UHGV virus genome: UHGV-1436680
Strand: one strand, 5' to 3'
Source of the DNA: a virus
Length of the DNA stretch: 6,300 nt
The notes beneath the pieces were generated by a model that saw only the letters and a program-made list of their open reading frames with translations, was not told the DNA's origin and did no database searches. Of the stretch, positions 67-6,300 are shown one piece after another. The translations under genes and the position numbers were made by a program. Within the stretch, counting starts at the first letter, position 1. Every line of letters starts with the position of its first letter.

Positions 67-237
67 CAGATAAACAGCCTTGCCAGATTCCTTACCATCC
101 CACGGCTTAAACTCGCCATTGTCCGCCAGCATCAGCGGGGTAAATTCCTGAATAACGCCAGCATCAGCGGCAAAATGTACCAGCGTCGTGGCGACCTGCT
201 GACTGCCTGCAAATAACTCAATGTATGGAGTGTCCAT
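67..237 (-). CDS. Hypothetical protein, 5' part only (57 codons, truncated by the adapter junction); next gene downstream of the capsid gene
   Basis: ATG at 237-235 (complement) sits 5 nt after GGGGGA and 11 nt after the capsid stop. The frame stays open to the insert edge: MDTPYIELFAGSQQVATTLVHFAADAGVIQEFTPLMLADNGEFKPWDGKESGKAVYL. Not in the ORF track because it has no stop. Family not recognised. Confidence 0.5.
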
Positions 238-248
238 AGAATCCCCCG

Positions 249-1304
249 TTAACCAATTTTGACGGTAACAAATTTACGAATATCTGCCGGAACCGGCTGC
301 GGTGCGCTGTGCGTCTGCACGTACTCAATCGCCGGATCGCCGTCCCCAATCCAGTTTTTCGGGTAAAACATGTTTTGCGTTGCGCCCGTTCTTACTGCGT
401 CCTGATCCATAATCGCACCATAGGCCACCAGCCCTTTATTGTTGGTGTTGCCCAGAACCAGCAAATCAGGCTCAAGGAAATATTTTTCTGTGCCGTCGCT
501 GTCAGTGTATTTGCCGGAATAGACGATAAGGGCAATATCGCCCAGATAGCCTTTAAAGCTCACCACTTCGCCCAGGTTTTTACAGGCCAGTTCGGCGGCG
601 GACTCTGAACCACGGGAAAGATCGTACAGCTCACGGAATTTTTTAAAGCTGCGTAACGTGCGCCATACCTCAGCGCCCATAATCATGACGTTTGCGGGGC
701 AACCAGCCTGATCAGCATAAAGCTCGATGTCATAGATTGGGTCGTGCATGTCTTTATCCTGCTCGGACCATTTTTTACCCTTGGCCTGCTCTATGATGCA
801 GTTTTCCGGTATTTTCCAGTCGATTTCATAGCGTTCTATGCCTTCGCCCTCAATGATGTTTTTTCCGGTCGTTATCGCATTCACCGCCAGCCATTCCACG
901 CGCGCTTTAATGGCGTTTACCTGGCGGCGCATGTTGCCAGTAATCAGGCGCATACGGCGGTAGGTAGGGTCGTTAAGCTGTGCCGGATCTTCTCCAGCCA
1001 TGCGCATGATGGTTTTTGTTGGATCGATTTCGTGCTTTGGCTTCATGTAGCCAGGTTTAATTGTGCTGGTTTCGTACCCTTTATCGCGCTGTACCTGGCT
1101 GCCAACCATAGGCGAACAAAACGCCGACATGGTGACTTCTTCAATGTCCAGGGTATCCAGCATGATGTTTTGCGTGCTGAATGTCGCCACGTTCGGGAAA
1201 AACAGCGTAGTAAACAGAGGGTTGAATTTAAAATCCGCAATATCCCCGCGATTCAGGTACATGAAAAGCTGGTTAGTGTTAAGTGCCGTTGCTTTGCCTG
1301 TCAT
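249..1304 (-). CDS. Major capsid protein, phage lambda gpE family (351 aa)
   Basis: Blocks match lambda gpE as I remember it: FKFNPLF (lambda FKFDPLF), PGYMKPKHEI (PGYVKPKHEV), GEDPAQLNDPTYRRMRL (DEDPQNLADPAYRRRRI), FKGYLGDIALIVYSGKYT (YKGMYGDVAIVVYSGQYV), VLGNT, YPKNW, GDPA, SAP. Length is similar (351 vs about 341 aa). SD GGGGGTGA lies 4 nt before the ATG. Confidence 0.9.
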   Translation of the reverse strand: MTGKATALNTNQLFMYLNRGDIADFKFNPLFTTLFFPNVATFSTQNIMLDTLDIEEVTMSAFCSPMVGSQVQRDKGYETSTIKPGYMKPKHEIDPTKTIMRMAGEDPAQLNDPTYRRMRLITGNMRRQVNAIKARVEWLAVNAITTGKNIIEGEGIERYEIDWKIPENCIIEQAKGKKWSEQDKDMHDPIYDIELYADQAGCPANVMIMGAEVWRTLRSFKKFRELYDLSRGSESAAELACKNLGEVVSFKGYLGDIALIVYSGKYTDSDGTEKYFLEPDLLVLGNTNNKGLVAYGAIMDQDAVRTGATQNMFYPKNWIGDGDPAIEYVQTHSAPQPVPADIRKFVTVKIG

Positions 1305-1510
1305 TATTCACCCCCGTGAACCTGATTCATACCCAGCGCCGCGCGTAAATAGGCGCGTACCTGCCAGCCTGTTGACGGCTCAACCATCGCCAGCGGATCA
1401 AGTCCTGCCGCAATGCCTGCTTTTACGTTCTGCTGGTGGCGTTCCTTGAGCGCCTTCACGATGTCGGGGCTTATGTACACCGAAACACCGCCTTTTTTCT
1501 CTTCAGCCAT
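1304..1510 (-). CDS. Hypothetical small protein (68 aa), translationally coupled to the capsid gene; not lambda gpD-like
   Basis: Its TAA stop overlaps the capsid ATG by one base (TAATG). SD AAGAGGAA lies upstream of its ATG at 1510. It is the first ORF after the promoter/operator region. The segment GVSVYISPDIVKALKERHQQ is weakly reminiscent of a ribbon-helix-helix strand-helix, with no firm homology. Confidence 0.5.
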   Translation of the reverse strand: MAEEKKGGVSVYISPDIVKALKERHQQNVKAGIAAGLDPLAMVEPSTGWQVRAYLRAALGMNQVHGGE

Positions 1511-1538
1511 AGTAAGAAATTCCTCTTTGACTTAAAAA

Positions 1539-1568
1539 ATCATAACTGGATGTTCATCCAGTTATGAT
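1539..1568. promoter_or_regulatory. Perfect 30-bp palindrome (14-bp arms, 2-bp spacer), candidate operator over the capsid-unit promoter and start site
   Basis: ATCATAACTGGATG (1539-1552), TT, CATCCAGTTATGAT (1555-1568); the arms are exact reverse complements. It abuts and overlaps further palindromes: TGATTATAATCA (1565-1576) and ATCATGAT (1573-1580). Confidence 0.6.
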
Positions 1569-1594
1569 TATAATCATGATTGCATTTTGTGCAA
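1567..1594 (-). promoter_or_regulatory. Putative sigma70 promoter for the 68-aa/capsid transcription unit
   Basis: On the minus strand: -35 TTGCAC (complement of 1589-1594), 16-nt spacer, -10 TATAAT (complement of 1567-1572). The predicted start near 1560 gives a leader of about 50 nt to the ATG at 1510. By-eye prediction only. Confidence 0.45.
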
Positions 1595-1675
1595 TGATAT
1601 TGAGTTGCGTTGCAAATTATGAAATGATTATCCCGATCATGTGTGTCAGTGCACCAAAAAACCTCATATGCAAAA

Positions 1676-1714
1676 GCCCGATAAGATGCCTCCTGTACTT
1701 ATCGGGCTTTTTTT
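1676..1714. terminator. Intrinsic terminator hairpin, strongest for the plus strand, possibly bidirectional
   Basis: Stem GCCCGATAAG (1676-1685) pairs with CTTATCGGGC (1698-1707) around a 12-nt loop, followed by T7 (1708-1714) on the plus strand and preceded by AAAA, which gives a shorter U tail on the minus strand. Confidence 0.6.
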
Positions 1715-1720
1715 GGGTAC

Positions 1721-1743
1721 AAAAAAGCCGGATTACTCCGGCT
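1721..1743 (-). terminator. Rho-independent terminator ending the minus-strand replication/SSB operon
   Basis: Read on the minus strand just after the TAA stop at 1749-1751: AGCCGGA, loop GTAA, TCCGGCT, then TTTTT(T). A 7-bp GC-rich stem with a T tail. Confidence 0.65.
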
Positions 1744-1748
1744 GTTGA

Positions 1749-2021
1749 TTAGCTGTCTGGGTAATTACGCCATATTTCATCGCTTACACCATCTATACCC
1801 ATTTCAGCATAAGTGCGATCTACTGCCTTTCTCAGGTCTCCGAAGTTATCCGGCGGCTCCGGTGGCTTCTGTGCCTTCCTGGAACATTCCAGCCGTCGCA
1901 TCGTAACCTGATGCCGTTCCTTGTCTGTCTCCACCAGCAGCATGACTTCACCCCATCGCGCCGATGCCCTCCGGTAAAAGCCTTTTGCCTCGAGTTCCTC
2001 CGCTATGCGGTCATGTACCAT
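1749..2021 (-). CDS. Small hypothetical protein (90 aa), possible helical regulator (ANR-family-like resemblance is tentative)
   Basis: Start chosen at the ATG at 2021, which follows GGGGGTGACG located 10 nt after the SSB stop. The 130-aa track ORF would overlap SSB by about 110 nt. Sequence begins MVHDRIAEELEAKGFYRRASARWGEVMLL...; the family call is a weak recollection only. Confidence 0.5.
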   Translation of the reverse strand: MVHDRIAEELEAKGFYRRASARWGEVMLLVETDKERHQVTMRRLECSRKAQKPPEPPDNFGDLRKAVDRTYAEMGIDGVSDEIWRNYPDS

Positions 2022-2031
2022 CGTCACCCCC

Positions 2032-2442
2032 TCAGAACGGAATATCATCACCGTAGGGGTCATCGTCTCCCGCTGGTGGCTGATTACCCTGTGTGCCTGT
2101 GGTTTTGCGTCTGTTCCCGCCAGGACGTGCCGCACGGGCACTGATTACGCTGTCTGCAATAACCTGATAACCCTGCCGCGTTTCCCCGTTCTGTCCGGTC
2201 CACTGGCTGACCTGCATCGTGCCGGATACGCTGGCAACGTCGCCTTTTTGATGTTTAGCCAGGAAGTCGGCCTGCTTACCAAATGCGATGACCGATAGCC
2301 ATAACGTAGCCTGCCCATCCTGCGCCTGACTACATGGCAACGATACCGCCATACGTGCCAGCGTCATTGGTGTGCCCTTGCTGGTCTGTTTTACCTGCGG
2401 GTCGTCCACCAGCCGCCCGTAAGCTGCTATCTGTGCTGTCAT
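2032..2442 (-). CDS. ssb: Single-stranded DNA-binding protein (SSB) homolog, 136 aa
   Basis: The C-terminus DDDPYGDDIPF is the canonical acidic SSB tail ending in IPF. The OB-fold region resembles E. coli SSB, with a Gly/Gln-rich linker (PGGNRRKTTGTQGNQPPAG). The ATG overlaps the upstream stop (ATGA at 2439-2442). Confidence 0.85.
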   Translation of the reverse strand: MTAQIAAYGRLVDDPQVKQTSKGTPMTLARMAVSLPCSQAQDGQATLWLSVIAFGKQADFLAKHQKGDVASVSGTMQVSQWTGQNGETRQGYQVIADSVISARAARPGGNRRKTTGTQGNQPPAGDDDPYGDDIPF

Positions 2443-2690
2443 GATTCCACCTCTCCGGTTTTAACGTTGATGGTTGTCACCTGTTCAGCTTCCGCAATCT
2501 CCCGCTCTGTCAGCGTGGCAAAATTTGCCGCCGTCGTGGTCATGAATGCGCTTATCAGTTCGGGATGTGCTTTCGCGTATCCTTCCCCCGCGTGGCGGTC
2601 TATCGTTCTGATTGCCACCTTTAAGGCGTGCTCTGTCATGTCTAACGCTTTATATTTTGGCTCTGTTCTGTCTCTGTGTTTTTGAGTCAT
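2439..2690 (-). CDS. Hypothetical protein (83 aa), translationally coupled to ssb
   Basis: Start chosen at the internal ATG at 2690 (MTQKHRDRTEPKYKAL...), preceded by GAGGTGG. The 114-aa track version begins inside the iteron array and is probably an over-extension. Family not recognised. Confidence 0.5.
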   Translation of the reverse strand: MTQKHRDRTEPKYKALDMTEHALKVAIRTIDRHAGEGYAKAHPELISAFMTTTAANFATLTEREIAEAEQVTTINVKTGEVES

Positions 2691-2692
2691 TT

Positions 2693-2893
2693 GCCCACCT
2701 CTACCCACTTTTTTCGCCCACTTTTTACGTTTTCCCACTTCGTCCAACGTGGGAAATTTGGGATTTATATCATCTTGTTTCATAGGTATTTTTTAGTGCC
2801 CACTTTTTGGGATATATACACGTGGGAAAGTGGGTAATTTTGTTAAAATTCCGTTAAATCGCCCACCTTTCCCACTTTTAATGCCCACTTTTT
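2693..2893. repeat. Iteron array, putative origin of replication
   Basis: Core CCCAC, usually followed by a T-run (GCCCACTTTTT), occurs 8 times in direct orientation (starting about 2694, 2704, 2717, 2734, 2799, 2862, 2871, 2884) and 3 times inverted as GTGGG (2749, 2822, 2830). Includes the inverted pair TTTCCCAC-N10-GTGGGAAA (2731-2756) and an AT-rich stretch (2757-2820). It lies immediately 3' of the Rep gene and overlaps its stop codon. Confidence 0.7.
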
Positions 2894-4301
2894 ACAGTGG
2901 TCCTACATCATCACCGTCAATGTAGATCACGTCGTCTTTTTCCAGTTTGGCTAACCATCGTTTAAGGTGTTTTGTGTCATACTCCAGCTTTTTCATATCG
3001 TCACGTAACAGCGGGATCGTGCACTTGTCGCCGTGCTGTGTGCGTGAACGTATGCATCCCCATAGCGCGGTATGGTTTTCCGTCTTGTTGCCTGCCTCCT
3101 CGATGCGCTCCAGTTCAACGGGAGGGCGCGGCTTATCCACCACCACCAGCGACGTGATTAACTCCCCGTCAGCGTCGGTAAAAAGCTCCACCACGCGTAA
3201 GTCATATGCGGCTTCTTTGAGTTCCTCCGCGTCCTTCATTTTGGTGCATGAGATAACCAGCGCTTCGCTTCCTGCGTCCTCCCTGCGTATCCGGTATTCA
3301 GCATCCAGCGAAGCACGAAATGCACTGGAACCGCGCGCGCCTTTCGTCTCATCCTTGCCGGAATGGTGAACCACCAGCACCGTGGCCCCTGTGCGTCGTT
3401 TCAGTTCGTCACAACCACGGATAAACGCCCCCATATCACGGGAATCATTTTCATCATTACCACCAAAGCAACGCGCCAGCGTATCCAGAATAATCATGCG
3501 AACAGGTTTACCCGTTTCCCTCTCCACCTGACGGGCAGCGATAACCATTTCATCAACATCAAGCGGGACCGCCGGAAAGATGGGACGGTTTACCAGATAC
3601 AGATTTTTCACCTGCTCACCGTGCACAACCTCCCAGGCTTTTACACGACGCGGAACGCCGATACCGCCTTCACCAACCACATAGAGAACAGCGCCATGCG
3701 CCACCCTGCGGCCTCCCCACTGGCGGCCCGTGGAAACGTGACACGCCCACGATCCGGCAAGGAATGATTTATAGGAACCGCTCGCCCCGTATATGCTGCA
3801 AAGCGACGATGCCGGAATAATCCCCTTTACCACGTAATCAAGCTGTGTGTCGTATCCGGTAGATCCAACGCTCATCGGTAGCGTGGTTTTTCGCTGGGGG
3901 ATTTTTTTCATGACCAGGCTTTCCCCGCGTTCCCATGCCTCCCTAAGCCGTGGAAGCTGGTCGCTCCATTCCTCCAGCAATTCGAAATTTTCAGAAAGTA
4001 GCCGCGCCTCCTGGACTCCGGCGATCGCCAGTTTCGTGGCGATGGTTAACAGCTGCGGCTCTTCAATATTTCCGGCGCGTATCACCGTCGCCCTGTATCG
4101 CCCATCATCAACAATCTGGAGGTTATCCAGTTCGCTTAACTGATAACGCCCCAGATAAACGGGAGGGACTGGATCTCCTGCTTTTTTTGCCTGTGCAATG
4201 ATGTAATGCTCTGCGAATGAATGAGCATCAATACCCGCAAAAATAATCGCATCGGTGTATTTATCTTTCGGTAATCGTTTTACGTTCGGTGCCAGTTTCA
4301 T
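2892..4301 (-). CDS. Replication protein, RepA/DnaB-like RecA-fold helicase-family ATPase (AAA_25-like), 469 aa, with an unassigned N-terminal domain of about 150 aa and a C-terminal putative DNA-binding region
   Basis: P-loop-like GASGSYKS (complement of 3765-3788), Walker B-like VRMIILDTLARCFGG, and VLVVHHSGKD...GSSAF matching the hhhHHxxK...GssA pattern of RepA-type helicases. Strong SD AGGAG 7 nt before the ATG. Start overlaps the upstream stop (ATGA at 4298-4301). Iterons lie directly downstream. No primase motifs seen. Confidence 0.8.
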   Translation of the reverse strand: MKLAPNVKRLPKDKYTDAIIFAGIDAHSFAEHYIIAQAKKAGDPVPPVYLGRYQLSELDNLQIVDDGRYRATVIRAGNIEEPQLLTIATKLAIAGVQEARLLSENFELLEEWSDQLPRLREAWERGESLVMKKIPQRKTTLPMSVGSTGYDTQLDYVVKGIIPASSLCSIYGASGSYKSFLAGSWACHVSTGRQWGGRRVAHGAVLYVVGEGGIGVPRRVKAWEVVHGEQVKNLYLVNRPIFPAVPLDVDEMVIAARQVERETGKPVRMIILDTLARCFGGNDENDSRDMGAFIRGCDELKRRTGATVLVVHHSGKDETKGARGSSAFRASLDAEYRIRREDAGSEALVISCTKMKDAEELKEAAYDLRVVELFTDADGELITSLVVVDKPRPPVELERIEEAGNKTENHTALWGCIRSRTQHGDKCTIPLLRDDMKKLEYDTKHLKRWLAKLEKDDVIYIDGDDVGPL

Positions 4302-4597
4302 TTTTTACTCCTGAATCCGTTAATCATGGTTTTCAGCTTCTGGATGTTTGCCCGTGCCCTGGCGTTGCTGGTGGGCACGTTATGCGGCGCGGTCTGTACC
4401 AGAGAAAAATCACGCCGGAACTGATAAACAGGCATCACGCAATCATATTCGTAACCTTCACGGCGGTAGGTTACGCGCCGTTCTTCCACGCCCTTAATCA
4501 TTACCGTGCCGCCGTACTGGTCGCGGTAAATATCACCGCGCGTAAATTTAGGGTGAGTGTTGCCACTGGCAGTTAAGCCAGAATATTTAAGTTTCAT
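4298..4597 (-). CDS. Hypothetical protein (99 aa); possible DUF4222-like small protein of the kind found upstream of satellite replication genes (low-certainty recollection)
   Basis: ORF with GGAGA upstream of the ATG, coupled to the Rep start by an ATGA overlap. Contains the motif RVTYRREGYEYDCVMPVYQFRRDF. Confidence 0.55.
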   Translation of the reverse strand: MKLKYSGLTASGNTHPKFTRGDIYRDQYGGTVMIKGVEERRVTYRREGYEYDCVMPVYQFRRDFSLVQTAPHNVPTSNARARANIQKLKTMINGFRSKK

Positions 4598-4602
4598 TAT
4601 TT

Positions 4603-4836
4603 TTATTCTCCGGTGTGCTGTTCGTTATATCTGTCGTGCAATGTCTCTATTTCCTGCAACTCATTTATTACAGGCTCAAGAAGCGTTATTAATGATGTAA
4701 TAATCCGCGTTTTTTTTGCATTACGTTCATTATCGCCAAAGGATTCAAGGCACATCCGCAATATTTCGTACATACCTTCAGCGTAAGCAAGGGCACTAAA
4801 TGCGCGGTCTATTGTTTCAAGATAAATATCACGCAT
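4603..4836 (-). CDS. Hypothetical small protein (77 aa)
   Basis: ATG preceded by GAGGA. The start overlaps the stop of the upstream ORF by 8 nt (ATGCGTGA). Lies in a low-GC stretch. No family recognised. Confidence 0.5.
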   Translation of the reverse strand: MRDIYLETIDRAFSALAYAEGMYEILRMCLESFGDNERNAKKTRIITSLITLLEPVINELQEIETLHDRYNEQHTGE

Positions 4837-5062
4837 GGCTTACATCCTCAGGAAATTTTCTTCTGTAACGCGCCTCTGCCACATATTCCGCATAATCGGC
4901 GGCGATATTCAGTACATCAAGTCCCGTTGATTTATATTCTTTCGTGGAAAGTAAGAAAAAAGCCGCTCTAATAAGTTCTGGCATTGACGAAAGCGCATCA
5001 GCCGCATCATCAGGAACGCCGGAAAATTCTTGTTTCAGGGAATTAAAACGATCATCACGCAT
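4829..5062 (-). CDS. Hypothetical small protein (77 aa)
   Basis: The ATG immediately follows the G9 tract (GGGGGGGGGTTATG). The ORF overlaps the 3' end of the upstream ORF by 28 nt. No family recognised. Confidence 0.5.
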   Translation of the reverse strand: MRDDRFNSLKQEFSGVPDDAADALSSMPELIRAAFFLLSTKEYKSTGLDVLNIAADYAEYVAEARYRRKFPEDVSHA

Positions 5063-5277
5063 AACCCCCCCCCATTTTCACAATCAGCAACAAGAATATT
5101 TTTAGCGTCATTCAGCGACCGCGTTGCGATGTATCGGATACATTCCAGGGCGAACTGTGTCCGGTCTTTCTGTTCTTCTCCCTGCGCAAGCTCTGCCGTG
5201 CATTCAATATCAATAAGCGCGTGCATCAGCGTAGTGAGTGCGGCGGCTGCTGCGTTCGGTGTGGTTTTATTGTGCAT
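5035..5277 (-). CDS. Hypothetical small protein (80 aa)
   Basis: Start chosen at the internal ATG (MHNKTTPNAAAAAL...) preceded by GGGGGA. The 3' end reads through the G9 tract (ENGGGLCVMIVLIP). Predicted helical; no family recognised. Confidence 0.45.
   Translation of the reverse strand: MHNKTTPNAAAAALTTLMHALIDIECTAELAQGEEQKDRTQFALECIRYIATRSLNDAKNILVADCENGGGLCVMIVLIP
5065..5073. repeat. Homopolymeric C9 (G9 on the coding strand) tract at the junction of two overlapping small ORFs
   Basis: Nine consecutive C at 5065-5073, read directly from the sequence. Confidence 0.9.
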
Positions 5278-5467
5278 AGGTTTCCCCCTGACGAATACGG
5301 GCGGCGAATACAGCAACACAACCGGACGGGCAACGGCTACGCGCTTCGCGTTCCGTCCAGGCGGTTACGTGGATGATTTGAGATTCTCCGGCACTCAGGG
5401 CCAGAAAACGCCACACAAAGGCCGTTTGTGTGTGTACAAGGTGTGGTATATGATTTACGGCAACCAT
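5267..5467 (-). CDS. Hypothetical small protein (66 aa), possible first gene of the minus-strand early operon
   Basis: ATG at 5467 preceded by a strong SD (AGGAG, 5-nt spacer). The frame is open for 66 codons (MVAVNHIPHLVHTQTAFVWRF...). The stop lies 8 nt downstream of the next ORF's ATG. Support is start context only. Confidence 0.35.
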   Translation of the reverse strand: MVAVNHIPHLVHTQTAFVWRFLALSAGESQIIHVTAWTEREARSRCPSGCVAVFAARIRQGETYAQ

Positions 5468-5557
5468 AACGGCTCCTAGTTTACGTTGTTGGTTAGAAGC
5501 CCTGCGAGTGGTAATGACACTTGCGGGGCTTTGCTTTTTTAAGTGCTCTTGTGTTAA

Positions 5558-5601
5558 GGTGACCACCTAACAATGGAAAGGCTAATTCAATAGGTGACCA
5601 C
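5558..5601. promoter_or_regulatory. Two copies of GGTGACCAC(C) in the divergent intergenic region; candidate operator half-sites
   Basis: GGTGACCACC at 5558-5567 (near-palindrome, arms GGTG/CACC) and GGTGACCAC at 5593-5601, 35 bp apart. The second overlaps the SD and start of the Arc-like gene. A weak -35/-10 candidate (TGACCA, 17 nt, TAATTC) overlaps the first copy. Confidence 0.4.
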
Positions 5602-5793
5602 TTGTCAACAATCAAACGCGATAAAAGCCCTAAAGGGGACGGGCAATCCCCACAATTCAGAATGCGAATTTCTCCAGAGCTAAAAGAGCAATTCGACAAA
5701 GAAGCACAGAGCGACGGCATAAGCCTAGCCAACTGGCTTAAAGAGTTGGGGCGCACTGAACTAAAGCGGCGCGGCATAGAACCCAAAGGATAA
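5602..5793 (+). CDS. Arc/Mnt-like ribbon-helix-helix DNA-binding protein (63 aa, TTG start)
   Basis: PQFRMRISPELKEQFDKEAQSDGISLANWLKEL aligns with the P22 Arc (PQFNLRWPREVLDLVRKVAEENGRSVNSEIYQRV) and Mnt beta-strand/helix A/helix B pattern. SD AGGTGA lies 4 nt before the TTG. The internal ATG at 5662 would delete the beta-strand. Confidence 0.6.
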   Translation: MSTIKRDKSPKGDGQSPQFRMRISPELKEQFDKEAQSDGISLANWLKELGRTELKRRGIEPKG

Positions 5794-5850
5794 AAACTAT
5801 CAGCGCCGTGGTGTGAGGTATTACGGCGCATTGCTATGCAGGACAACACA

Positions 5851-6024
5851 ATGACCGATAAAGAATTGACCAAAACATTATCACCGGCACGGAAAAGACG
5901 GCGCAGAAAGATAGAGCATGAATCAGAAAGATTCGCACCATGTGCTTTTGCCCTTGAGCAATTCCTTAAAGAGTATAGGGAAAAGCGCTCATTGCAGGTA
6001 TGGCAACGAACTGAACCAGACTGA
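5851..6024 (+). CDS. Hypothetical small basic protein (57 aa)
   Basis: ATG at 5851 with AGGA 7 nt upstream. Arg-rich segment ARKRRRRK. Followed by a terminator. Weak evidence, no homology recognised. Confidence 0.3.
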   Translation: MTDKELTKTLSPARKRRRRKIEHESERFAPCAFALEQFLKEYREKRSLQVWQRTEPD

Positions 6025-6118
6025 TTGCATTGCCCACCAGCCTGATAGCGGCTATCATCCCCGTGCTTATGTTTGGGATCACATACACATAAGGCGCAGC
6101 GGGTTAATTGTTCAGAAA

Positions 6119-6146
6119 GGCGGCTCCATATCGGGGCCGCTTTTTT
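6119..6146 (+). terminator. Rho-independent terminator for the plus-strand Arc-like unit
   Basis: Stem GCGGCTCC (6120-6127) pairs with GGGGCCGC (6133-6140), with one G-U pair, around a 5-nt loop, followed by T6 (6141-6146). Confidence 0.6.
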
Positions 6147-6239
6147 CGTGTTTGTCATATCTGTGATACCCGTTAAGCAGCCGTTCCGCGTGCTTCCTGT
6201 TCGCGTTCTTTCTGCCAGGCCAACACATCATCCTCATAC

Positions 6240-6300
6240 CTGTCTCTTATACACATCTGACGCTGCCGACGAAGAGGATAGTGTAGATCTCGGTGGTCGC
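6240..6300. other. Illumina Nextera adapter (technical): mosaic end, read-1 adapter, i5 index, P5 sequence (reverse-complement orientation)
   Basis: CTGTCTCTTATACACATCT (6240-6258), GACGCTGCCGACGA (6259-6272), AGAGGATA (6273-6280; reverse complement of TATCCTCT, the S503/N503 index as I recall it), GTGTAGATCTCGGTGGTCGC (6281-6300, start of the P5 complement). Confidence 0.95.

Follow-up and report, generated by a model that had tools for sequence, protein, structure and literature searches.

The window analysed here, 6,300 nt of DNA from a single Nextera library molecule, carries a gene for a major capsid protein of the lambda gpE family (HK97 fold) at positions 249–1304 on the minus strand. 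The 351-residue product matched Pfam Phage_cap_E over profile positions 15–328 of 329 (E-value 1.7e-50, 172 bits against a cutoff of 22.9), and the HMM search therefore upholds the capsid call made in a first-pass annotation of this DNA. Searches of the PDB returned 3BQW (6e-230) and lambda gpE, 7VI9 (2e-81). The protein is the orthologue of c1499 of E. coli CFT073, with 95% identity to c1499 and its crystal structure 3BQW, and it is 43% identical to lambda gpE over its full length. The closest of 407 phage records was 46.9% identical. At all five sampled loci encoding homologues with 55–68% identity, the gene lay in a PICI, an island with the organization int-alpA-rep-SSB-E-D-TerS/Rpp. Capsid peptide patterns, when scanned against species-representative genomes, yielded no confirmed relatives. 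Judged by these sequence comparisons, the satellite capsid forms a lineage to which no capsid of the searched phage collection exceeds 47% identity.

The first-pass annotation had described the capsid gene as standing alone. Instead, it occupies second place in a row of at least five co-oriented, tightly spaced late genes (orf68, E, D, Nu3-like and TerS). A lambda gpD-type head-decoration gene starts at position 237 on the minus strand, 11 nt past the capsid stop, and its first 56 codons lie within the window (70–237) before the gene is cut by the end of the insert. This end, at position 67, had been reported in the first-pass annotation and proved to be the site of an Illumina Nextera adapter. 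The insert, positions 67–6239, matches E. coli MS 21-1 (NZ_CP146670.1) at 100% identity, and in this source genome the further head genes that had been considered possible downstream are present: the gpD-type gene, a Nu3-like gene and a Nu1-type terS. The full decoration gene encodes 111 residues (8835–9170 of source-genome locus L002; Pfam HDPD 4.4e-17, phrog_49 2e-26). Its product is 99% identical to CFT073 c1500 and 36% identical to lambda gpD, and its PDB matches were SHP and gpD. The Nu1-type TerS has 180 residues (Pfam Phage_Nu1 2.3e-23); lambda Nu1 is 35% identical to it over residues 3–180, a span that includes the gpA-binding region in lambda. A PDB sequence search with TerS returned noise alone, and an NCBIfam scan found no family for any late gene.

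Upstream, as had been noted, the capsid gene is coupled to a 68-aa ORF (orf68; 1304–1510, minus strand), whose TAA stop shares one base with the capsid ATG (TAATG). The product of orf68 matched phrog_3255, a family of unknown function (8e-37), and is the orthologue of CFT073 AAN79967 (98.5% identity). Homologues turned up in E. coli, Salmonella and Pluralibacter alone, and the coupling to the capsid gene is kept in diverged PICIs at 48–66% identity. Structure prediction, which the first-pass annotation had proposed for this ORF, yielded an AF2 model (pLDDT 74.5) with a beta-hairpin and two helices; Foldseek found nothing in the PDB below E 1.7, and neither Pfam nor NCBIfam gave a match. We considered whether orf68 could be a ribbon-helix-helix repressor of the palindrome described below. 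With Foldseek, Pfam and NCBIfam all empty, this idea was unsupported.

The late genes follow a predicted sigma-70 promoter on the minus strand (1567–1594), read from the sequence as TTGCAC (1594–1589), a 16-nt spacer and TATAAT (1572–1567). TATAAT and TTGC were invariant in all nine islands compared, and the promoter is conserved in PICIs, Salmonella PICIs included, with capsids 64–68% identical. A consensus promoter scanner missed it; the −35 box agrees at three of six positions. A conserved dyad, TTTGCAA-N14-TTGCA(C)AAA (1588–1615, minus strand), lies over the −35 box, centred about −41.5 from the predicted start, and is possibly an activator site. Between the −10 box and the ribosome-binding site of orf68 is a perfect palindrome (1538–1569), which the first-pass annotation had recognized, with 15-nt arms and a 2-nt spacer; zero palindromes of this kind were expected in shuffled sequence. 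TTTTTT follows it on the minus strand. Its core, CTGGATG-AA-CATCCAG, was exact in seven of nine islands, with variable outer arms and one compensatory pair. The palindrome was found in one Salmonella PICI and is missing from one E. coli lineage, and a second copy was found neither elsewhere in the island nor in the helper region of CFT073. The sequence features behind the claim of an operator-controlled promoter are thus present, but operator control was an interpretation rather than an observation: the palindrome is predicted to be either an operator or a 5' stem-loop.

Two hairpins with T-runs (1672–1743) divide the replication operon from the late operon, in agreement with the two terminators originally described. 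One is a terminator-like match at 1743–1726 on the minus strand and the other an inverted repeat (1672–1685/1698–1711) with an A-run on one flank and a T-run on the other; both are kept in CFT073 and RM9154. A search of Rfam across the whole window gave zero matches. We also examined the late promoter as a copy of a lambdoid pR'/qut site antiterminated by helper Q and rejected this candidate: blastn of positions 1511–1680 against phages returned chance-level matches alone, with E-values of 0.1 or worse, and TTCATA-18-TATCAT, the upstream promoter candidate needed for the idea, has an unconserved −10 box.

Beyond the terminators lie replication and regulatory genes, all on the minus strand. A PerC-family regulator gene (1749–2021; 90 aa as annotated; Pfam PerC 1.6e-44) is followed by genes for a single-stranded DNA-binding protein, SSB (2032–2442; Pfam SSB 4.2e-17, phrog_44 1e-40), and a conserved hypothetical protein of 83 aa (2439–2690; phrog_1231). 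A predicted iteron-type replication origin (2704–2891) contains seven CCCAC[CT]TT repeats, six on the plus strand and one on the minus, and the rest of the window is free of the motif. It sits directly 3' of rep (2892–4301), which encodes a 469-aa RepA-family helicase/replication initiator (Pfam AAA_25 2.2e-44, phrog_2850 8e-223), a position that agrees with the published location of PICI origins (PMC6092414). The first-pass annotation had the order of SSB, iteron origin and Rep helicase right and overlooked the PerC gene between the terminators and SSB. Next comes a gene for a DUF4222 protein (4298–4597; Pfam DUF4222 1.6e-24), which in each related island we looked at holds the same place immediately upstream of rep. 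Finally, the other end of the insert cuts an AlpA-like helix-turn-helix regulator gene, of which the last 22 codons remain (6173–6239). The assignment comes from a profile match of the complete 68-aa gene in the source genome (L002 15106–15312; Phage_AlpA E 0.0035, 17.6 bits with a cutoff of 21, whole profile covered), and the equivalent gene in related island L011 has a recorded PF05930 match.

In MS 21-1 the insert belongs to an island of ~10.7 kb flanked by tRNA-Pro/yejM on one side and yejO on the other. Imperfect 37-nt direct repeats, 10,679 bp apart and outside the window in the source genome, bracket it. The integrase gene, likewise outside the window, adjoins tRNA-Pro(GGG) (Pfam Phage_integrase 5.7e-29 and Arm-DNA-bind_3). 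From int, the early side runs through AlpA-like, Icd-like and small genes, DUF4222 and the RepA helicase, then the iteron origin, the 83-aa gene, SSB, PerC, the double terminator and the late promoter. The late operon comprises orf68, the gpE-type capsid gene, the gpD-type decoration gene, a 137-aa gene and the Nu1-type TerS; 3' of TerS there are three 17-bp repeats, a putative cos site, and then the island end. Annotation of the whole island and its flanks revealed no TerL, portal, protease, connector, tail or lysis gene inside the island. Importantly, the flanks were also free of a complete head-tail module, the arrangement that the first-pass annotation had associated with a rearranged full prophage.

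These features correspond to those of a PICI. The island is small, within the range of about 10–20 kb for this type, with a tyrosine integrase at one end and a specific chromosomal attachment site, and it encodes its own replication initiator, directly followed by an iteron origin of predicted activity. A 68-aa helix-turn-helix gene sits downstream of int, where an alpA-family regulator is expected, but its Phage_AlpA score below the Pfam cutoff counts against the assignment. The Nu1-type TerS, its last intact gene, places a packaging-redirection gene near the 3' end, and island annotation and late-gene family scans showed that tail and lysis genes are absent and the head set is incomplete. 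Against a P4-like satellite, Rep matched AAA_25 only, without the primase domain of a P4 alpha-type primase-helicase, and there were no counterparts of sid, psu or delta among the island annotations or Pfam/PHROG matches. Identity with a known phage was dropped, as megablast found no counterpart of the insert among 50,697 phage genomes. Because the insert matches MS 21-1 perfectly, shares its late module with the mobilised island EcCICFT073 and comes from an island without other virion genes, we conclude with high confidence that the element is an EcCICFT073-family Gram-negative PICI, a ~10.7-kb satellite of lambdoid cos phages, in its tRNA-Pro(GGG) copy. This confidence applies to the identity of the element alone and does not extend to any mechanism of shell building. 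Region 249–1600 is the promoter-proximal stretch of the late (morphogenesis and packaging) operon of this PICI. The original reading of a satellite layout rather than a prophage head operon was correct, and the full island with its int, AlpA-like gene, rep/ori and short late module bears it out; it was also already known, as EcCICFT073-type PICIs are well described.

EcCICFT073 is the prototype Gram-negative PICI and excises, replicates and transfers at high frequency: a helper phage turns on alpA, AlpA leads to excision and replication, and helper proteins package and transfer the island (PMC6092414). The same paper named c1499 and c1500 as capsid and decoration homologues and equated this PICI family with O-island 51 (PMC6092414), and capsid genes are present in 21 of 29 reference Gram-negative PICIs (PMC10111431). 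EcCICFT073 and the MS 21-1 island have alpA, Icd-like, DUF4222, rep, ori, SSB, PerC, terminators and late promoter in the same order, followed, again in the same order, by orf68, capsid, decoration, 137-aa and packaging genes. Their late proteins are 95% (capsid), 99% (decoration), 100% (137 aa) and 98.5% (orf68) identical, and the regulatory region, palindrome included, is nearly so. By contrast, the RepA-type helicase of MS 21-1 (469 aa, AAA_25) is replaced in EcCICFT073 by a 584-aa primase-family protein, the 180-aa Nu1-type TerS by the 144-aa RppA, and integration near yejM at tRNA-Pro by integration on the phoQ side. RppA matches RppC (6HLK) at 5e-31, whereas the MS 21-1 TerS had no RppC match. 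An island adjoining phoQ in O157:H7/O55:H7 has the same pairing of RepA helicase and Nu1-type TerS and the same late module, with ~92% DNA identity over 87% of the insert; it differs in lying on the phoQ side, in having Icd-like duplications and in carrying one more small gene, placed between PerC and the late promoter.

We compared the late operon with the lambda head module (Nu1, A, W, B, C/Nu3, D, E, FI, FII). The island encodes homologues of E (43%), D (36%) and Nu1 (35%) and a counterpart of the C-terminal ~90 residues of Nu3, but nothing corresponding to A, W, B, the C protease, FI or FII. Gene order is reversed in the island (E, D, Nu3-like, Nu1), and lambda lacks the extra 68-aa gene coupled to E. 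The Nu3 homologue, p137, has one repeat and 137 residues, compared to 201 for lambda Nu3. Its family is phrog_1999, and it also matches phrog_53 (head protease C-terminus) at 1e-8. A deep profile search with p137 retrieved three-repeat scaffold proteins; scaffold proteins P0072 and P0074 match phrog_1999 at 1e-41 and 1e-46, and over the final ~90 residues of p137 the alignment to the Nu3 C-terminus is colinear. A comparison by hhalign with a shallow profile gave only 4% probability, and the AF2 model of p137 (pLDDT 47.8) was too poor for a fold search. On the strength of the deep profile matches, p137 is a predicted truncated scaffold of the lambda Nu3 type, with one repeat instead of three. 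A 141-aa homologue of p137 (28% identity) accompanies the capsid lineage at 64% identity.

The late module was present in 598 of 5426 complete E. coli genomes, or about 1 in 9, with carriers including O157:H7, CFT073 and Nissle 1917, and the same ~10 kb architecture occurs at several attachment sites. In all nine sampled island copies the late genes were intact and of equal length. Across these nine islands dN/dS was lowest for capsid (0.11) and decoration (0.14) and higher for p137 (0.32) and orf68 (0.35), and the capsid module is kept under purifying selection. These data bear on the idea that the element is the decaying remnant of a rearranged lambdoid prophage with functionless head genes. 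Genome annotations often call such islands defective prophages (O-island 51; PMC6092414), one gene of the MS 21-1 island is frameshifted at a C9 run, and the reversed late order would fit a rearrangement. However, several attachment sites across 598 genomes hold this architecture, its late genes are intact with dN/dS between 0.11 and 0.35, capsids of the phage collection do not exceed 47% identity, and EcCICFT073 is highly mobile (PMC6092414). Purifying selection and the shown mobility of the near-identical CFT073 island contradict the remnant idea, which we regard as very improbable. The prevalence count, the purifying selection, the separation of the capsid lineage and the Nu3-type scaffold homology are new in this analysis.

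What the late module does is a separate question, for which we offer a tentative proposal with less than an even chance of being right in all its parts jointly. The late operon would be read from its own conserved sigma-70 promoter. The satellite coat, decoration and mini-scaffold proteins would then form shells on the helper portal with the helper protease, and the Nu1-type TerS would bring helper TerL to the satellite cos site. In this scheme the helper would contribute only unique-vertex, enzymatic and tail parts.

Several observations run against shell building. The role in building or remodelling capsids that the first-pass annotation had suggested is without experimental support: deletion of c1499 or c1500 left lambda interference and resident-prophage transfer unchanged and had no phenotype (PMC6092414), and EcCICFT073 DNA inside particles is phage-sized (PMC6092414; PMC6893505). 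Islands of the TerS type, IHE3034 and 18098, transferred poorly in the sole reported test, with no helper known, and some PICI lineages retain E and D but lack the 137-aa gene. The c1499 and c1500 deletions were built in a c1501::tetA island (PMC6092414). The order of accessions makes the 137-aa scaffold gene the most likely identity of c1501, and if so the control in these deletion experiments may already have been impaired.

A more self-sufficient arrangement, in which the island is a cf-PICI that makes a complete head by itself and borrows nothing but tails from the helper, has next to no probability in our estimate. cf-PICIs such as EcCIEDL933 have a related int/alpA/rep backbone and also encode capsid proteins, and the MS 21-1 island has four head and packaging genes, for coat, decoration, scaffold homologue and small terminase. 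But these four are all that it has, whereas cf-PICIs carry a complete head and packaging set of TerS, TerL, HNH, portal, protease and connectors; TerL, portal, protease, HNH and adaptor/connector genes are their hallmarks (PMC10085698; bioRxiv 10.1101/2022.09.08.507074), and we found none of them between the att boundaries.

Alternatively, the satellite capsid could act mainly against the helper, co-assembling with helper coat to shrink or poison its heads. The mini-scaffold would perhaps co-assemble too, altering head size to suit a ~10.7 kb satellite. The island is about one-fifth of lambda's size and its Nu3-type scaffold is shortened, to a single repeat rather than three; in SaPI1 a scaffold-kind protein, CpmB, sets shell size. 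SaPIbov5, through Ccm, and PmCI172 are satellites that likewise carry a diverged homologue of a helper-type coat (PMC6893505); Ccm, 23% identical to its helper's coat, alters capsid shape and redirects size, and PmCI172 forms small capsids (PMC6893505; PMC6092414). Unlike Ccm, the island coat is a full-length homologue accompanied by decoration and scaffold homologues encoded in the same island; its decoration partner and full-length 43% identity to gpE suggest a complete shell subunit rather than a modifier. Furthermore, c1499, the nearest tested relative, showed no size redirection and no phenotype, packaged EcCICFT073 DNA is phage-sized, interference survived loss of c1499 or c1500 (PMC6092414), and RppA alone explains EcCICFT073 interference (PMC6092414, PMC6739421). 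We consider action against the helper unlikely.

We assign a still lower probability to the capsid and decoration genes being spare or decoy copies, either a backup for the helper coat or a variant that evades capsid-sensing defences. Helper-embedded PICIs insert in the helper E gene and bring their own E, and a backup role has been discussed (PMC10111431); we met one helper-embedded case, L014, and the absence of a laboratory phenotype fits a conditional function. Most copies, those in MS 21-1, CFT073 and O157 among them, nonetheless sit at chromosomal sites outside helper genes, 43–47% identity to phage coats makes a swap with helper scaffold, portal and decoration doubtful, and no defence-related evidence was found in this analysis.

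Publications from 2008 to 2018 had already described this family of satellites, both its capsid and its decoration gene, and the crystal structure of the capsid. An intact coat, decoration and scaffold set is maintained under selection in roughly one of every nine complete E. coli genomes, and no function has been found for it. Our analysis sharpens this functional question by adding the scaffold homologue and by indicating that the key knockouts were probably made in a scaffold-disrupted background. Returning to shell building on helper parts, EcCICFT073-type PICIs may, though we would not count it as probable, be "half capsid-forming", with orf68, coat, decoration and mini-Nu3 building most of the shell and portal, protease, TerL, connectors and tail alone coming from the helper. 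The published lack of phenotype would then be attributable to tetA in the scaffold gene c1501 and to lambda and phi80 not being natural partners. If true, "half capsid-forming" PICIs would represent an intermediate stage between classical PICIs and cf-PICIs.

The DNA carries Illumina Nextera adapters at 1-66 and 6240-6300: one end has P7, the i7 index AGGAGTCC, the N7 arm and the mosaic end, and the other has the mirror set with i5 and P5. The window is therefore a single 6.17 kb library molecule and not a piece of an assembled genome. The full insert (67-6239) is 100% identical to positions 1828908-1835079 of the E. coli MS 21-1 chromosome (NZ_CP146670.1), and a megablast search of the insert against 50,697 phage genomes returned no match. 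In MS 21-1, the island to which it belongs lies between tRNA-Pro(GGG)/yejM and yejO and is flanked by imperfect direct repeats of 37 nt, set 10,679 bp apart. It begins with an integrase, a small gene and an AlpA-like helix-turn-helix gene, followed by small genes (one Icd-like), DUF4222 and a replication part composed of a RepA helicase, iterons, an 83-aa gene, SSB and PerC. Downstream of PerC are two terminators, a late promoter and the late genes, in the order orf68, capsid, decoration, 137-aa gene and Nu1-type small terminase (TerS). The island lacks genes for large terminase, portal, protease, connector, tail and lysis functions, and thus does not contain the complete head-tail module whose discovery in the flanks, according to the first-pass annotation, would have refuted the satellite reading. 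We regard a capsid-forming phage-inducible chromosomal island (cf-PICI) as scarcely credible. Outside the window, 3' of terS (6878-7157 of L002, the MS 21-1 stretch holding the island), the 17-bp palindrome GTGGTCATTATGACCAT occurs three times, at spacings of 95 and 168 bp; these copies are candidate TerS-binding (cosB R-type) sites of the satellite.

Within the window, almost all features listed in the first-pass annotation are present. The major capsid ORF (351 aa; 249-1304, minus strand) matches Pfam Phage_cap_E at 1.7e-50, and the TAA stop of orf68 (68 aa; 1304-1510, minus strand) overlaps its ATG (TAATG). The capsid gene had been described as standing alone, which is wrong: a gene for a lambda gpD-type decoration protein starts 11 nt past it, at 237, and is interrupted by the insert end. 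The order proposed upstream of the capsid gene holds for the elements named, namely a perfect palindrome (1538-1569; 15-nt arms, 2-nt spacer; none expected by chance), two hairpins with T-runs (1743-1726 and 1672-1711), SSB, an iteron cluster of seven CCCAC[CT]TT repeats confined to 2704-2891, and an AAA_25 RepA-type helicase; it overlooked a PerC-family gene (1749-2021) between the terminators and SSB. Elsewhere in the window, a minus-strand gene at 4829-5319 is split into two overlapping ORFs at a C9 run (5065-5073). The related RM9154 island has an intact 154-aa gene here, and PGAP labels the gene "frameshifted" in the complete MS 21-1 genome; the tract could be genuinely slippage-prone or a shared sequencing error. 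No family matches the 221-aa ORF annotated on the minus strand at 5493-6158, which is probably a spurious call. The same interval probably contains a real pair of small divergent genes: the plus-strand ORF 5836-6024 matches a divergent gene annotated in the CFT073 island at 100% identity, the plus-strand ORF 5602-5793 has a marginal HicB (ribbon-helix-helix) match, and a terminator-like hairpin (6114-6146) lies beyond.

The stretch from the terminators to orf68 has a mean column identity of 92% across nine islands. Its best conserved element is a predicted late promoter (TTGCAC-16 nt-TATAAT; 1594-1567, minus strand), in which TATAAT and TTGC are invariant in all nine and which is also found in PICIs with capsids 64-68% identical. 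The palindrome begins within the -10 box and would cover about -9 to +23, a placement that, judged from the sequence, is operator-like; if transcription began farther upstream, its RNA would instead form a 14-bp hairpin with U6 directly after it. Seven of the nine islands have its core, CTGGATG-AA-CATCCAG, without a mismatch, and one shows a compensatory change in the outer arms. The palindrome occurs in a Salmonella PICI and is absent from one E. coli lineage. A second dyad, TTTGCAA-N14-TTGCA(C)AAA (1588-1615, minus strand), is conserved in PICIs of both E. coli and Salmonella and overlaps the -35 box, with its center about -41.5 from the predicted start; geometry centered on -41.5 is typical of class II activator sites. 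The "operator-controlled" promoter of the first-pass annotation is plausible but unproven. A mimic of Q antitermination was also examined but not supported.

EcCICFT073, the prototype Gram-negative phage-inducible chromosomal island (PICI), has the same late module, with protein identities of 98.5% (orf68), 95% (capsid), 99% (decoration protein) and 100% (137-aa protein). The capsid also shares 95% identity with PDB 3BQW ("putative capsid protein of prophage"), which corresponds to CFT073 c1499 (AAN79968). The satellite interpretation is correct, and had been published for exactly this gene family: EcCICFT073 is induced by a helper through AlpA and replicates from its own origin, a resident prophage as well as lambda and phi80 transfer it at high frequency, and c1499 and c1500 were designated capsid and decoration homologues (Fillol-Salom et al. 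2018, PMC6092414). Of 29 reference Gram-negative PICIs, 21 carry a major capsid gene (Mageeney et al. 2023, PMC10111431). Compared with EcCICFT073, the MS 21-1 island is a mosaic relative: its attachment site is different, it has a RepA helicase rather than a primase-family Rep, and in place of RppA it encodes a 180-aa Nu1-type TerS that shares 35% identity with lambda Nu1 across residues 3-180. The O157:H7 and O55:H7 islands share its RepA/TerS combination. Across islands the packaging gene behaves like an exchangeable cassette, some having a Nu1-type TerS and others Rpp (1518-1952 in L010 and 11138-11722 in L011, two related PICI loci); it is inverted relative to the capsid operon in two genomes (rppA in NR329, a Nu1-type gene in L011).

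Of 5426 complete E. coli genomes, 598 carry the block of capsid, orf68 and promoter, among them O157:H7, O26, O145, CFT073 and Nissle 1917. In nine islands differing in Rep type, packaging gene and attachment site, the four late genes are all intact and identical in length, with dN/dS values of 0.11 (capsid), 0.14 (decoration), 0.32 (137-aa gene) and 0.35 (orf68). The best capsid identity among 407 phage-genome matches is 46.9%, and five loci from E. coli and Salmonella with capsid homologues at 55-68% identity are all int-alpA-rep-SSB-E-D-TerS/Rpp islands. The satellite capsid thus forms a lineage of its own. That the locus is a prophage remnant is very improbable. In one of the five loci (L014), a PICI of the family interrupts gpE of a lambdoid prophage, leaving pieces of 91 and 254 aa (1511-1786 and 12309-13073), an example of the published helper-embedded PICI type.

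By sequence comparison, the 137-aa protein is a truncated homologue of Nu3-type scaffolds. Its match to phrog_53 (head protease/scaffold) falls at the C-terminal end of that family (1e-8), and the lambda Nu3 C-terminus is colinear with its last ~90 residues up to the final residues. Searching 1.8 billion representative proteins with a profile retrieved three-repeat scaffold proteins, whose own matches to the 137-aa family reach 1e-41 and 1e-46. The lineage with a 64%-identical capsid carries a 141-aa version, 28% identical, and some lineages with E and D lack the gene. Translational coupling of orf68 to the capsid gene is kept in diverged islands (48-66% identity); the predicted orf68 model, a beta-hairpin with two helices (pLDDT 74.5), had no structural match.

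The course shown for the family is that a helper turns on alpA, excision and iteron-origin replication follow, and helper proteins package the DNA. In MS 21-1, the late operon would use a promoter of its own, and the helper large terminase may act with the Nu1-type TerS at the satellite's own cos region. Our preferred reading, a tentative one, is that the capsid set assembles shells on the helper portal using the helper protease, because the coat protein is full length, has its own decoration protein and scaffold homologue, and, like both of these, is under purifying selection. Counting against shell-building are the phage-sized DNA and the published null phenotypes: deletion of c1499 or c1500 altered neither interference nor transfer (PMC6092414). 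We judge it unlikely that the set redirects capsid size or poisons the helper, and more doubtful still that it serves as a backup or decoy. The deletions were built in an island marked with c1501::tetA. From the CFT073 accession order (AAN79967, orf68; AAN79968, capsid; AAN79969, decoration), c1501 most likely encodes the 137-aa Nu3-like scaffold (7084-7497 in L003, the CFT073 island region); if so, the capsid module was possibly already impaired in the control strain. The satellite nature of this capsid gene family was already known; the present analysis adds that its coat, decoration and scaffold genes form a widespread, selected module.
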